A DNA stretch of 14,520 nt, taken from an uncultured Bacteriovoracaceae bacterium. Lineage in GTDB: Bacteria > Bdellovibrionota > Bacteriovoracia > Bacteriovoracales > Bacteriovoracaceae. This document shows positions 10,034-14,520 of this stretch, in pieces. The first letter of the stretch is position 1, and each line of letters starts with the position of its first letter. Under the pieces are notes generated by a model. That model was not told the origin of the DNA, made no database searches, and saw nothing but the letters and a program-made list of their open reading frames with translations. The DNA is taken from assembly GCA_964012805.1 (NCBI GenBank), contig CAXGUD010000070.1, positions 1 to 14,520 of the forward strand, given 5' to 3'. The translations under genes and the position numbers were made by a program.

Positions 10034-10110
10034 GCAGTCGTAGCTCAGCTGGATAGAGCATCCGCCTTCTAAGCGGACGGTCGCAGGTTCGAATCCTGCC
10101 GACTGTGCCA
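10034..10110 (+). tRNA. tRNA-Arg(TCT)
   Basis: Full cloverleaf: acceptor GCAGTCG/CGACTGT, D-arm GCTC/GAGC with A20, anticodon arm TCCGC-CTTCTAA-GCGGA (TCT at 10068-10070), T-arm GCAGG-TTCGAAT-CCTGC, encoded CCA; 77 nt. Confidence 0.98.
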
Positions 10111-10268: not shown

Positions 10269-10295
10269 TAAAACCCCTGTTTTTTAGAGGCTTTA
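10269..10295 (-). terminator. Putative intrinsic terminator of the left-arm operon
   Basis: Minus-strand hairpin UAAAGCCUCU-AAAAAAC-AGGGGUUUUA about 10 nt after the stop at 10305. Two G-U pairs form only on the minus strand. Confidence 0.55.
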
Positions 10296-10304
10296 TTATA
10301 GGTA

Positions 10305-10724
10305 TTAAACTTGATTTACAGTAGTTACAAATTTTCTTTTTGTATTAATTCTTTTGTAATTATGTATTCTTTCGTAATAGCCGTGACCTTTAGTTTCCAT
10401 GAAAACAATAAATGGCAATGCTAATAGAAGCTGCAAGCAAAGAGTCTCCAGGTGGGAAATATCCCACTTAAGGTATTCCACACAGTCACTAACTAAATGG
10501 TAAATAGAGAGACTTATTAATAACTTGGCAAAGCTTTTGTATTCCCAAAGTATGTACGCAAGGAAAAAGCCAGAAAGGAAAACGAAAAAGCCTTCCGGAT
10601 AAAAGCCGAATAACTTCTCTATTCCCTTAGCAAGAATGACTCCTGGTATATGACAGACAAACATCACTGATATACCTAATGCTAATAAGCCTAAATATTT
10701 AAATAAACCTTTTATGTTATTCAT
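10305..10724 (-). CDS. Hypothetical membrane protein (3-4 TM helices, basic C-terminal tail)
   Basis: 139 aa with several hydrophobic segments; GGAGG RBS. Confidence 0.75.
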   Translation of the reverse strand: MNNIKGLFKYLGLLALGISVMFVCHIPGVILAKGIEKLFGFYPEGFFVFLSGFFLAYILWEYKSFAKLLISLSIYHLVSDCVEYLKWDISHLETLCLQLLLALPFIVFMETKGHGYYERIHNYKRINTKRKFVTTVNQV

Positions 10725-10767: not shown

Positions 10768-11046
10768 CTAATTGCTCACAAGTTCCCTATAAATTAGCCA
10801 TACAAATAAAATTGGAGCAGGCACTGATATCCAAAATAAATCAGGGTATTTATTATAAAAATTAAACATCATATAATTCTTCTTTTCCAAAAGGATTGAT
10901 ATTATACCTAAAACCAAACCTAAAAAAAGAGCGAATTCTTTACTGAATATTGTGACGTCGAAATACTGAAGGGCAACTATTCTAAAACTGAACACAAGAC
11001 TAATCATGGTAATAAAACCCATCAATATGACATAATTTTTTTTCAT
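10768..11046 (-). CDS. 92-aa three-TM membrane protein, paralog A
   Basis: Start re-assigned to ATG 11046 (MKKNY...) because it aligns from residue 1 with 13014..13313 and removes the overlap with the upstream peptide ORF. Confidence 0.8.
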   Translation of the reverse strand: MKKNYVILMGFITMISLVFSFRIVALQYFDVTIFSKEFALFLGLVLGIISILLEKKNYMMFNFYNKYPDLFWISVPAPILFVWLIYRELVSN

Positions 11047-11062
11047 AGTAAGTTTCCAAACA

Positions 11063-11221
11063 TTAAATATCAGCGATATCAAAAGGAATGTCAGGCGTCC
11101 ATATACCTGCAGTTATAGAGCCGCCTCCAGAGCCAACTCCACCACCTCCGTTACCATTCCAGCCGTAGGAGTTTGATACGAAAGAAAGTACAACTAAAGA
11201 AACCATGATTATTTTTTTCAC
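11063..11221 (-). CDS. 52-aa secreted Gly-rich peptide (not in the ORF track)
   Basis: GGAGG RBS then GTG, 2 nt after the regulator stop. Translation MKKIIMVSLVVLSFVSNSYG-WNGNGGGGVGSGGGSITAGIWTPDIPFDIADI. It has a classical Sec signal and fills the intergenic gap. Confidence 0.8.
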   Translation of the reverse strand: MKKIIMVSLVVLSFVSNSYGWNGNGGGGVGSGGGSITAGIWTPDIPFDIADI

Positions 11222-11223
11222 TA

Positions 11224-11961
11224 CTACCTCCCCTCCATGTCATCGGACAGAATCATTGTAAAAATTGGCTCAGTCCGCTCCCCTTTATCTTCTTCCATAA
11301 TACTGGAAACATCCTTCATTGCATTAGTTAAAACCTGAATCACATCTCTTCTTGCTTCACTGGAGACCTTGTTCCATCTCAAGTTGAAGATATTTTTCCC
11401 GTTTTTAAAATTGGATTTTTTTACAAAATTAAAAAAGGTTGGGGCAAACTTCAAACCGTTGTCGATATCGACTTGGTAATTGTCATTCGTATCAACCACA
11501 ATTCCGTTTACTTCAGCAACGACCAACTTCTCTTTTAAATCTTCAAGGGCTTGTAACCCTGCTAAACCAAAGTTCTCTTTAATGAAGTCAACGGTAGTCC
11601 CGTCGTCGTTCTGACTTAATACAAAAACTTTGAAGTGCGTATCACTCACTAAAGCCTTGTTTAAAATTTCATTATCGCTTGTTCTGATTATTTCTTCTTC
11701 GTCCGAAAGAATAAGCCTAAAACTCTTCTCAAGAGACATTCTTATCAGGCTGTTTTTCTGAAGCGAGTTCAAAATCGTCTTAAGACCTCTCTTCTTTGTA
11801 ACGTGCGCTGCGATCTCTAACAGTGCATTTGCAGGGATATTCTTAATCTCACCGAGATAATATCTTCTAGCTGAAGAGTAGTTTATAGTTGTGCCCTCAA
11901 CAAGTTTCTCTAAGGATGTGCTGTCTCTTAATAGCCTTTTAACTTCTTCACAAAGAGTCAT
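11224..11961 (-). CDS. Putative HTH transcriptional regulator (XRE-like HTH, winged-helix-like middle, C-terminal domain; TIGR02147/DUF4423-like layout)
   Basis: N-terminal SLEKLVEGTTINYSSARRYYLGE resembles an XRE/Cro HTH; the middle GTTVDFIKENFG..GLQALEDL...VVAEVNG resembles a wHTH; AAGGAG RBS. Family assignment is by eye. Confidence 0.6.
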   Translation of the reverse strand: MTLCEEVKRLLRDSTSLEKLVEGTTINYSSARRYYLGEIKNIPANALLEIAAHVTKKRGLKTILNSLQKNSLIRMSLEKSFRLILSDEEEIIRTSDNEILNKALVSDTHFKVFVLSQNDDGTTVDFIKENFGLAGLQALEDLKEKLVVAEVNGIVVDTNDNYQVDIDNGLKFAPTFFNFVKKSNFKNGKNIFNLRWNKVSSEARRDVIQVLTNAMKDVSSIMEEDKGERTEPIFTMILSDDMEGR

Positions 11962-12303
11962 TAAATAGCTCCTTTATTTTTGGGAACAAAATTAATATCA
12001 CTTTGTCACCTTTTTTCAATATGGAGAACTTCAGTGTGGAAGAGTTTTCAAAGTGCAAATATAAAATTAGACGAAATTTCAATAACTTACGACAAAAGCT
12101 TTTGATTAGGCTCATTTAGTGTTTTTCACCCTGGAATTTTTATCTAAATCAACAGTATTTAGACCTTGATAAAGACCTATATTTTTCCATTTTGAAAACC
12201 ATACCCCCTTCCATAGAGGAAGTATTTTAAATCGAAACGCAAACCTCAATAGCCACCCCAAAAATATTTTTCTAGCGTTTCCCTCATCAAAAAGGGGGAT
12301 TAT

Positions 12304-12810
12304 ATGAAATTTAAAAATGCTGTTATTTGCTTCTCTTTAACCGTTACTTCTATTGCTTGTGCTTCTTCACCTGACAAAGAAATTATTCAGATGATTGAAC
12401 TTGCTAAGGAAACTAGAGCAATTACCAATTATGAGAGGAATCTAGCTGTTTCAGTTATTAAGAAAAAGAGGAAGTTGGGATTATGTGAATCCAAAAAGCC
12501 TTGTTACAAACCACAGTTTATTACTGATTTAATTTTAGGAAACACCACATTCCATGAAAAAAATCTAATAGATGATTTCCTTGGTGGCTTTTTTGAAGAA
12601 GAAAAAGATTTCATGAAAGATGTGGGCGATAAAGTTAAAGATGTGGGAAGGAAGATTAGGAAAAAGTTTGACGAAAACCAGAGGAAAAGAGCGGAAGGCA
12701 TTGCTGAAAATTACAAGCCCCATACCAGGGAAGCGAAAGAAAGAGAGAGAAAAAAAAGATTAGAAGAACACAACAAACTAATAGAAGCTAAAGTAGGAAC
12801 AGGAGTTTAA
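12304..12810 (+). CDS. Secreted (possibly lipo-) hypothetical protein with a charged helical C-terminus
   Basis: Signal MKFKNAVICFSLTVTSIACA; GGGGGA RBS; internal KDVGxK heptad duplication. Confidence 0.75.
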   Translation: MKFKNAVICFSLTVTSIACASSPDKEIIQMIELAKETRAITNYERNLAVSVIKKKRKLGLCESKKPCYKPQFITDLILGNTTFHEKNLIDDFLGGFFEEEKDFMKDVGDKVKDVGRKIRKKFDENQRKRAEGIAENYKPHTREAKERERKKRLEEHNKLIEAKVGTGV

Positions 12811-12811
12811 T

Positions 12812-12973
12812 TTGTTAAAGGAATTTCTTCCAAACATACTAGCAGTTGAGGCAATTCACGCCATGGGTATAAGTGAAGGAGTCGCTGAATTCATAGCTAT
12901 AGTAATGGCCTCAATTCTCATAGTTTTACTCAAAATGGGATTTGATAAACTATCTAAGATAAAGGGTTCATAA
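12812..12973 (+). CDS. 53-aa single-TM protein (not in the ORF track)
   Basis: AGGAG (12801-12805) 6 nt before TTG, 1 nt after the upstream stop. Translation MLKEFLPNILAVEAIHAMGISEGVAEFIAIVMASILIVLLKMGFDKLSKIKGS. Confidence 0.7.
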   Translation: MLKEFLPNILAVEAIHAMGISEGVAEFIAIVMASILIVLLKMGFDKLSKIKGS

Positions 12974-13013: not shown

Positions 13014-13313
13014 ATGAAAAAGAATTTTAGTATATTTATAATTTTTGTTTCTTGGCTTAATATTTTTTATATAATTACAAAAAAGGCTCTTGAGTATTTT
13101 AATGCCAAAGCATACAGCAATGAGACCGCTCTTTTTTCTGGGTTTGTTTTGGCCATTGCTCTTACCTTGATTGAAAAAAATAGAGACTATGCGTTTAAAA
13201 TTTTTAAAAAGTATCCGATGCTTTTTTGGTTTTTATTGCCTGGTACATTTTTAATTTTATTTTTAGTTTATCAGGATTTTATGGAAGGCTCTTACAGGTA
13301 CATCAATAATTAA
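13014..13313 (+). CDS. 99-aa three-TM membrane protein, paralog B
   Basis: Ungapped alignment to 10768..11046 with shared MKKN, ALxYF, SxExALFxGxVL, LxEK and KYPxLFW. Confidence 0.82.
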   Translation: MKKNFSIFIIFVSWLNIFYIITKKALEYFNAKAYSNETALFSGFVLAIALTLIEKNRDYAFKIFKKYPMLFWFLLPGTFLILFLVYQDFMEGSYRYINN

Positions 13314-13702: not shown

Positions 13703-13867
13703 TTGGTTTCACAAAGATTATTTGTCGTTAAAGCAGTTTCCATTTTGGAAAAGAAAGAGTTTATTATAAAAGCTCTATCCAAAGATCACGCCTTATTTTT
13801 AGTAAAAAAACAAAATGAGTTTTGCAGTTGGCAGAATTTTAGTTTTCAAGTCAAAGCTTTGAAATAA
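13703..13867 (+). CDS. 54-aa hypothetical protein (not in the ORF track)
   Basis: TAAGGA 7 nt before TTG. Translation MVSQRLFVVKAVSILEKKEFIIKALSKDHALFLVKKQNEFCSWQNFSFQVKALK. Confidence 0.5.
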   Translation: MVSQRLFVVKAVSILEKKEFIIKALSKDHALFLVKKQNEFCSWQNFSFQVKALK

Positions 13868-13969: not shown

Positions 13970-14221
13970 ATGATTAAAAGCAAAGAGTCAGCCTACAAAT
14001 TATTAAATGAATTTAGGAAAGTTCTTTTTGAAGTTACGTTAGACAAAAGAAGTTATGAGGTTGAAACGGAATACCAATTTGACAAAATAATCGAGTCTTT
14101 GAATAGAAAGGAAATGGAAGACAGATTTCCTCATCCAAAAGAAACCTTAGAAGAAAATCTTCATTATATGAGAGAAATATTTAGGGGTATCAGAATTTAT
14201 TTCATGAAAAGTGGTAAATAA
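13970..14221 (+). CDS. 83-aa hypothetical protein
   Basis: GGAGG RBS and ATG start; charged, helical-looking sequence with no recognisable motif. Confidence 0.65.
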   Translation: MIKSKESAYKLLNEFRKVLFEVTLDKRSYEVETEYQFDKIIESLNRKEMEDRFPHPKETLEENLHYMREIFRGIRIYFMKSGK

Positions 14222-14519: not shown

Positions 14520-14520
14520 T

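Follow-up and report, generated by a model that had tools for sequence, protein, structure and literature searches.

A family-wide pairing of an HTH regulator gene with an exported glycine tag, likely a peptide-signalling switch in Bdellovibrionota

Analysis of a 14,520-nt window (the whole stretch of DNA studied, comprising the entire contig CAXGUD010000070.1, C70 of genome G000) revealed a regulator gene directly followed by a gene for a small exported glycine-rich peptide, and by comparison with relatives this regulator-peptide pair is real, conserved, and family-wide. We read this widespread combination of regulator and short glycine tag as a likely, previously undescribed switch for peptide signalling; gene coupling, the conservation of that coupling, the enrichment of the tag, and an array of palindromes are established at the level of sequence. 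The cytoplasmic regulators known to sense peptides are mainly those of the Gram-positive RRNPP systems and the HetR of filamentous cyanobacteria. If the switch is true, it would be a further peptide-receptor family in predatory-type diderms, for which the literature searched held no peptide signalling, and the unnamed DUF4423/TIGR02147 proteins would gain a candidate ligand, a candidate binding site, and, at the window locus, a candidate operator; the pairing would also bear on the origin of the HetR hood. The literature searched (subscription journals and supplements lay outside it) held no description of the regulator-tag pairing, no papers on TIGR02147, no function or ligand for TIGR02147/DUF4423, nothing on Bdellovibrionota with RRNPP systems, and nothing on topic for the HetR hood with Bdellovibrio. 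In the passages available, DUF4423 occurred only in a table row for Bd3700; one table passage of PMC12546842 is cited, and the available passages of PMC7761841 had no bearing on the regulator-tag system.

Gene order at the window locus

The gene run on the reverse strand begins with a 245-aa regulator (11224..11961, -), a distant DUF4423/TIGR02147 homolog with an XRE-type HTH, a winged helix, and a HetR-hood-like C-terminal domain. It is followed after 2 nt by the GTG-initiated gene of a predicted 52-aa exported propeptide (11063..11221, -), whose GGAGG ribosome site, read from the sequence, lies inside the last codons of the regulator (11227..11231, -), 5 nt ahead of the GTG. The ATG (11046) of a 92-aa protein with three membrane segments (3-TM protein; 10768..11046, -) comes 16 nt past the peptide stop; an alternative upstream TTG giving 104 aa has no ribosome site. 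A 139-aa membrane protein (10305..10724, -) is probably the final gene of the same operon, and a terminator-like hairpin from a consensus scan only (10269..10295, -) closes the four-gene run. The three-gene layout, both gaps, and the GGAGG site are therefore as an earlier note on this DNA had described them. That note had also called the peptide ORF unannotated, which does not wholly hold since the identical 52-aa sequence is already present in the protein collection as an unnamed entry (cluster of 4, 14 contigs). Genome G082 of the same genus repeats this three-gene arrangement, its gaps being -1 and 16 nt.

Divergently transcribed from the regulator are a 168-aa protein with an export signal and a G-T-G-x tail (12304..12810, +), which is a likely regulator target, a 53-aa membrane ORF coupled to it (12812..12973, +), and a 99-aa paralog of the 3-TM protein with 36% identity (13014..13313, +). 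The family scan gave no match above cut-off for the eight ORFs of the window, and promoters in a sigma-70 scan were not above shuffles (9 vs. 11.2). The source DNA was detected in marine metagenome runs, and close relatives bear the source labels Bacteriovoracales and Bacteriovoracaceae. One RNA run yielded two 151-base contigs (10939-11089 and 11116-11266), which were not counted as expression evidence because they are contigs and DNA carry-over is possible. The 168-aa exported protein ends in K-V-G-T-G-V (12790-12810, +), a second ligand or chance; G-small-G-x tails of this kind were found in 3 of 1418 signal-peptide ORFs of genome G000. A tRNA-Arg(TCT) gene (10034-10110, +) points with its 3' end at the cassette, and as relatives have the genes past it only in patches and position 14520 is the contig end, the cassette may sit on an island. 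The 168-aa and 139-aa neighbours had no counterpart in five relatives by single-protein queries, two of these relatives being only 68-72% complete.

The 3-TM gene occurs twice in G000, once in G082 (91 aa), and nowhere else among 237 family genomes; the protein collection holds eight homologs, all close, and no named family was found among its Atlas or Pfam matches. With the gene in only 2 of 237 family genomes, the 3-TM protein cannot be the receptor or importer of the family, as the earlier note had proposed, and from this distribution it is a genus-only accessory or output. The candidate role of general receptor was rejected on the same count, the regulator-tag pair being present in about half of the family genomes. 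Both 3-TM copies in G000 come after an export-signal gene and the place of the gene is kept in G082, as might be expected if the exported peptide were an antagonistic or membrane-sensed factor with the 3-TM protein as its receptor or immunity protein; this is very improbable given the mismatch in distribution with the regulator-tag pair and the lack in the 3-TM protein of a cytoplasmic signalling domain and of a named family.

Exported partners and their glycine tags

Regulator relatives were identified in 111 of 201 family genomes, and a profile search across the phylum recovered them in 26 of 151 genomes, a single genome having as many as nine matches. The loci taken comprised 30 top loci, a further 29 found with the profile, and 40 paralog regions of lower score; after removal of duplicates 100 regulators were obtained, and seven were dropped due to length, score, or doubt, leaving 93. 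Two of the loci (L034 and L035) are copies from the same strain type. Three closer regulators (P0002-P0004, 36-40% identity) are known as proteins without DNA context. One word-based search gave 139 candidate stretches and another on viral contigs 125 candidates, none of which were confirmed as relatives, and a second word-based search returned only the window regulator itself.

A coupled partner was defined as a signal-peptide ORF starting -30 to +40 nt from the regulator stop, and such a gene followed 81 of 93 regulators compared to 95 of 714 control genes of the same genomes (one of the 81, L066, is probably spurious). A glycine tag under a seven-residue rule was present in 69 of the 81 partners vs. 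17/95 and 56/651 in two backgrounds, although the rules for signal peptides and tags are crude and were chosen with the data already in view, and the loci are related to one another. Several of the 12 untagged partners are variants, such as GEWTWV or GEVTGH. Among the 12 regulators lacking a coupled downstream partner, six have an upstream one (251-332 aa; one shared with a tandem paralog) and six have none by the rule. The partner overlaps the regulator stop by 4 nt in 50 of 80 cases. Downstream partners range from 36 to 207 aa with a median of 120, and those of at most 60 aa (7/80) occur in four separate clades. The coupling of a secreted partner suggested in the earlier note was thus borne out (81/93), whereas its tiny size was not, most relatives having partners of 79-207 aa; G082 does keep a short ORF. 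Since the partners of most relatives are long and bear a short glycine tag, the conserved unit is the regulator plus the tag.

The position of the tag varies with the clade. In the GExTGA clade it begins where cleavage is predicted and in the GGxxGG clade two residues into the mature part, and it is C-terminal in 13 of 80 partners with glycine at -6 in 12/13 and at -2 in 12/13, against 6/1320 G-rich ends in the background. Terminal tags give the six-residue register G-x-x-small-G-small. Upstream of the L064 and L065 regulators, a 332-aa exported gene encodes at least five tandem GGEGSGSG-type tags, resembling multi-copy pheromone precursors. The carrier bodies fall into 32 BLAST groups among 81, and the tags instead follow the regulator clades, for which the tree is a quick IQ-TREE result. 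For example, L053 and L054 share GGEGG[TN], and L058 and L090 share G[DT]FQGG, across families and with carriers unlinked by BLAST. For 46 representatives, tag likeness correlated with the hood (partial r 0.15, reached in 4 of 2000 permutations) and with the winged helix (0.23, 0/2000) vs. -0.05 for the HTH, a test in which five pairs had no hexamer by the rule and some rule picks are probably wrong. This hints that tag likeness tracks the winged helix and hood rather than the HTH, the co-variation for which the earlier note had asked, although co-inheritance can explain part of it as the permutation test ignores the tree.

The true DUF4423 loci showed a similar arrangement, with a coupled signal-peptide gene in 17 of 33 and a tag in 12 of 33, mostly ending G-N-G-G; two complete genomes had 16 and 19 DUF4423/TIGR02147 matches. 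In G000, the gene 91 nt after a true DUF4423 gene (L033:2108-3193, contig C97) encodes an exported protein whose four-glycine tag lies close to the start of the mature part, and the other two of its three true DUF4423 genes have no such exported partner. The tag could alternatively mark a co-regulated exported protein for processing or trafficking, with the regulator sensing another ligand and the pair being only an operon, given that a real body is present in most carriers (median 120 aa), that co-inheritance of adjacent genes would be enough alone to make tags follow clades, and that half of the true DUF4423 loci are without a coupled partner. We consider this rather unlikely, as a sorting mark would not occupy either end, the interior, or several copies, carriers of 36-55 aa leave almost nothing to sort, and the likeness to the HetR hood and the passed complex model described below also speak against it.

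Several further loci extend the picture of these pairs. Partners of 40 aa consisting of signal peptide plus tag are present at L055, L056, and L059 (G317, G287, and G309), which are complete genomes of another family. Regulators of the GExTGA clade (L004, L005, L010, L011, L020, and others) are usually preceded directly by the gene of an exported protein that contains the motif GSGCP-x-GT and is presumably DUF4360-like. In G000 and G025 the paralog beside a conserved upstream gene, where elsewhere the regulator precedes a GExTGA carrier, is shortened to 161 aa with an intact frame in both (L036:1309-1794 on G000 contig C62; L149:1495-1980 in G025). Missing from it are the winged helix and the hood's first helix (profile positions ~100-190), and it has no partner gene before the convergent neighbour, such that it may act as a peptide-blind regulator; this co-loss represents one event in one genus.

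The window peptide itself has a Sec-type signal (residues ~1-20; 11162-11221, -) with MKK, a hydrophobic core, and S-Y-G ahead of W21, and a 32-aa mature part (residues 21-52), in agreement with the earlier note; the cleavage site before W21 was judged by eye and the crude rule cuts two residues earlier. A match to a Phr N-terminus (15.5 bits, cut-off 25) was rejected as mirroring the signal peptide only. Within the glycine-tag region (residues 21-42; 11096..11161, -), the family register points to residues 26-33, where G-G-G-V-G-S-G-G resembles the GGxxGG and DUF4423 tags, and the complex model points to residues 33-39, where the docked G-S-I-T-A-G resembles the GExTGA tag; the two registers differ. 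The mature peptide has no Arg and only G-[SN]-G cores, the RG(S/T)GR motif of HetR ligands being absent. The G082 counterpart is a 55-aa peptide of 49% identity that ends at the same residue and shares N22, G23, G25-27, V29, G30, G32, G33, T37, A38, and the tail P-x-x-P-x-D-x-x-D-I. Across the 12-codon glycine block, the two genes have three identical codons, six silent differences, and three residue changes. The close regulator subfamily of the window is present in only 2 of 237 family genomes (G000 and G082). A sister regulator of the window clade in G052 (L137:2229 onward) is followed by a 36-aa ORF (the same ORF at L153:2247-2357) whose leader looks amphipathic and is not a classic signal peptide; the ORF also has a run of four glycines and a tail that is acidic.

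That 73 of 80 partners exceed 60 aa raises the question of whether the window copy is the stub of a once longer carrier, kept mainly for the translational coupling of the 3-TM gene, in which case the family may signal and this cassette not. The deviation of pocket residues 197-198 from the family fits this reading, as does the hydrophobic-Asp pattern of the tail, which by eye recalls a strand in some carriers. Searched against longer carriers, however, the G082 tail reached 18.9 bits at best and the window tail had no match, with shuffled 95th percentiles of ~20, and no carrier relic was found in the window or G082 locus. A recent truncation is therefore unsupported, which answers the objection of a truncated 5' stub raised in the earlier note, and an old truncation is possible. 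The shared stop position, the identity to G082 with mostly silent changes in the tag block, and the occurrence of short partners in four separate clades also tell against a stub, leaving it only a slim chance.

Regulator architecture and predicted peptide site

The regulator has three domains. An N-terminal helical domain of XRE/Cro-type HTH (residues 1-85; 11707..11961, -) is likely DNA-binding, is modelled with pLDDT 92-94, and has profile matches to HigA/HipB/SinR-type chains at positions 14-72; Pfam HTH_3 was recognized at E<=0.05 in 47 of 125 family members, the protein of the window not being among them. The winged helix (residues ~95-160; 11482..11679, -) has ArsR/MarR-type matches with Z 7-8.7 over model residues 91-180. 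The C-terminal HetR-hood-like domain (residues ~163-243; 11233..11475, -) gave pLDDT 89 when folded separately and includes an edge strand (residues 188-198; 11368-11400, -) that is the predicted peptide-pairing strand. The AlphaFold2 model of the whole regulator (pLDDT 81, pTM 0.51) has the HTH domain, the winged helix, and a less certain tail, and the protein is likely a dimeric DNA-binding protein, the dimer being predicted. The G082 regulator is 43% identical.

The window regulator had no Pfam DUF4423 or TIGR02147 match above cut-off and weak matches occurred in 3/125 (Pfam) and 2/125 (TIGR) relatives. Profile-profile comparison of the family with 31 DUF4423 proteins nevertheless gave 98.35% in hhalign (E 1.1e-14, 226 columns), and DUF4423 clusters were among the Atlas structure matches (TM 0.49-0.52). 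The kinship with TIGR02147/DUF4423 noticed earlier is thereby upheld, though below both family cut-offs. The absence of TPR repeats was likewise supported, as the chain is filled by the HTH, winged helix, and hood-like domain and no TPR family was among the 25 commonest Pfam matches of the 125 members. Weak matches to NCBIfam AimR were found in 5/125 members (best 1.1e-5). By sequence, the regulator is a distant branch of DUF4423 and neither a HetR nor an RRNPP member.

When residues 158-245 were folded alone and compared with 48,161 chains, the HetR hood in complex with PatS6 (4ynl_B) ranked first with a middling Z of 7.0, rmsd 3.2, and 74 of 76 residues aligned, covering the whole domain. 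The second match was full HetR (4hri_B, Z 5.0), and the next unrelated rows were helices with Z 4.1 and below over 39-61 residues. The C-terminal domain is accordingly predicted from the model to be of HetR-hood type. Pfam HetR_C (PF18460) had no match at the locus even at E 10, no HetR chain was among the 60 PDB sequence matches listed for the family profile, and Foldseek gave no match at E<=0.001 for the whole-chain or hood-domain model. The whole-chain VIA structure list contained winged helices throughout and not HetR. Its best match was Kfla_6221 (PDB 4g6q; Z 9.4, rmsd 6.7, 141 aligned), which aligned over 80 residues with the hood-domain model (Z 3.3). Kfla_6221 likewise has a winged helix plus a C-terminal domain, but is a 168-residue chain aligned only to model residues 95-242 and its entry names no ligand; as it shares the fold without a named ligand, fold alone is no proof of peptide binding.

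Modelling of two regulators with two mature peptides gave complex scores of 0.69, 0.69, and 0.68 compared to 0.01 for the best of three controls, the outcome of the multimer check proposed earlier. These scores lie above the pass mark, which 116 of 157 solved pairs attained in calibration as against 2 of 215 mismatched ones; the modelled complex is, however, unlike the calibration set, and the pass may reflect HetR-PatS likeness, with the predictor reproducing the solved structure of the HetR hood with PatS6. The runs share at least 64% of contacts, with a partner pLDDT of 46-50 such that the fold of the peptide itself is uncertain. In the model, peptide residues 30-42 are placed antiparallel on hood strand 188-198, touching helices of the other subunit with predicted contacts to winged-helix residues 114, 117-119, and 121. 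The same geometry is seen for PatS6 at strand beta3 of the HetR hood, where acidic residues of the strand hold the amino end of PatS6 (PMC4649674, in the part available). At position 197, the point at which the docked stretch begins in the model, 90 of 125 relatives have Glu, a residue that would accommodate a free amino terminus of the peptide; the window regulator has Asn followed by Lys198, and its clade mostly Asn-Lys, a departure from the family that makes the pocket of the window copy atypical.

Proposed circuit and candidate operator

By analogy with the control of HetR by PatX, we favour, with some reservation, a circuit in which an exported, trimmed, and re-imported peptide controls the regulator. 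Drawing on HetR-PatX and RRNPP systems, the 52-aa precursor would leave the cytoplasm via Sec, a periplasmic peptidase would cut it to about six to eight residues, and a general oligopeptide ABC transporter would take the peptide back in. Residues 30-42 would then, according to the complex model, pair antiparallel with hood strand 188-198 and touch the winged helix of the other subunit, and the bound peptide would by the same analogies free the regulator from palindromes between its own operon and the divergent one. Such a loop would report the build-up of the tag in the periplasm or nearby medium. Genome G000 encodes six oligopeptide-binding proteins (PF00496), and no peptidase or importer gene was linked to the locus.

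The missing dedicated importer or peptidase is also compatible with an export monitor, in which the regulator binds the tag on unexported precursor and senses Sec capacity or envelope stress within one cell with no re-import. Tight translational coupling gives both partners equal amounts side by side, internal tags in an unfolded precursor would need no cleavage, the stretch docked in the model is an internal one, and the window clade is without the conserved Glu. Against this, many tags start exactly at the signal-peptidase site and C-terminal tags hold a six-residue register, which argues for free ends, and signal-less PatX neither bound HetR in a two-hybrid assay nor blocked differentiation (PMC12756182, in the part available). 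Monitoring of this kind seems unlikely to us, though it deserves more weight than the other alternatives.

The favoured circuit of export and re-import is closest to HetR with PatS, PatX, or HetN in filamentous cyanobacteria. According to the available part of PMC12756182, export is indispensable for PatX, from which a HetR-binding hexapeptide is produced. Both systems have a three-part dimeric regulator with a C-terminal hood (by model for the window), a short peptide as antiparallel edge strand at two per dimer (predicted for the window), and a Sec-exported precursor in a diderm; PatS6 (ERGSGR, 4ynl title) and PatX6 (HRGTGR) have Gly second from the end, as in the terminal tags. The window regulator differs in having an XRE-type HTH and winged helix where HetR has DNA-binding and flap domains, in having no Pfam HetR_C sequence match, and in a peptide with no RG(S/T)GR motif and no Arg in its mature part. 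The precursor gene also overlaps the regulator, there are up to nine paralogous matches per genome with differing tags, and the host is unicellular. The likeness to RRNPP(A) systems (Rap-Phr, PlcR-PapR, NprR-NprX, AimR-AimP, and Rgg-SHP) is in layout only: the regulator adjoins a gene for a Sec-exported propeptide of similar size, the signal peptide being called by a hydrophobicity rule and by eye. Tags in RRNPP systems may be at the C-terminus, inside, or in tandem copies (PMC11343458, in the part available). In contrast to RRNPP(A), there is no TPR, the host is a diderm outside Bacillota, and most precursors carry a folded-looking body of ~100-200 aa. The suggestion of a non-RRNPP regulator-peptide system is partly supported by the missing TPR, the conserved exported partner, and the plausible predicted site, and qualified in that the closest model is HetR-PatS/PatX. 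TIGR02147/DUF4423 (PF14394) proteins are homologous over 226 columns with the same three-domain plan, and their genes often have a coupled downstream gene for an exported protein whose tag is of the G-x-x-x-G-N-G-G type; they differ in that the window subfamily falls below both cut-offs.

A broader and more tentative reading, to which we give somewhat less than even chances, is that many peptide channels operate side by side in Bdellovibrionota, with every regulator of the XRE-winged helix-hood type reading its own six-to-eight-residue glycine tag that is exported and then re-imported. This would cover the window subfamily plus DUF4423, with up to about twenty regulators per genome and the tag cut from the start, end, or middle of its carrier. 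If true, the HetR hood would be one branch of a widespread peptide-receptor fold and secreted proteins would carry receipts that tell the cell, or neighbours in the same prey, of their export.

A candidate operator array (12014..12197) of the palindrome TT[CGT]CA-N3-TG[ACG]AA, with exact copies at 12046, 12124, and 12185 and one outer mismatch each at 12014 and 12029, is the only such cluster among 98 exact sites in the 4.47-Mb genome. Two exact copies and one near copy lie upstream of the G082 ortholog, and the window and G082 regulators were the only ones out of 100 with at least two exact upstream sites. Shuffles equalled the counts in 0 and 1 of 20,000, figures that are inflated since the pattern was read from these two regions and then counted. 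The likely targets are the operon of the regulator itself and the divergent one encoding the 168-aa protein, the 53-aa ORF, and the 3-TM paralog. A fourth exact copy (13738-13750) lies 220 nt ahead of an 83-aa ORF (13970-14221). The two tandem paralogs at L094 (1850-2608 and 5973-6734) differ in their tags, and each is preceded at a distance of exactly 194 nt by a palindrome of the same class.
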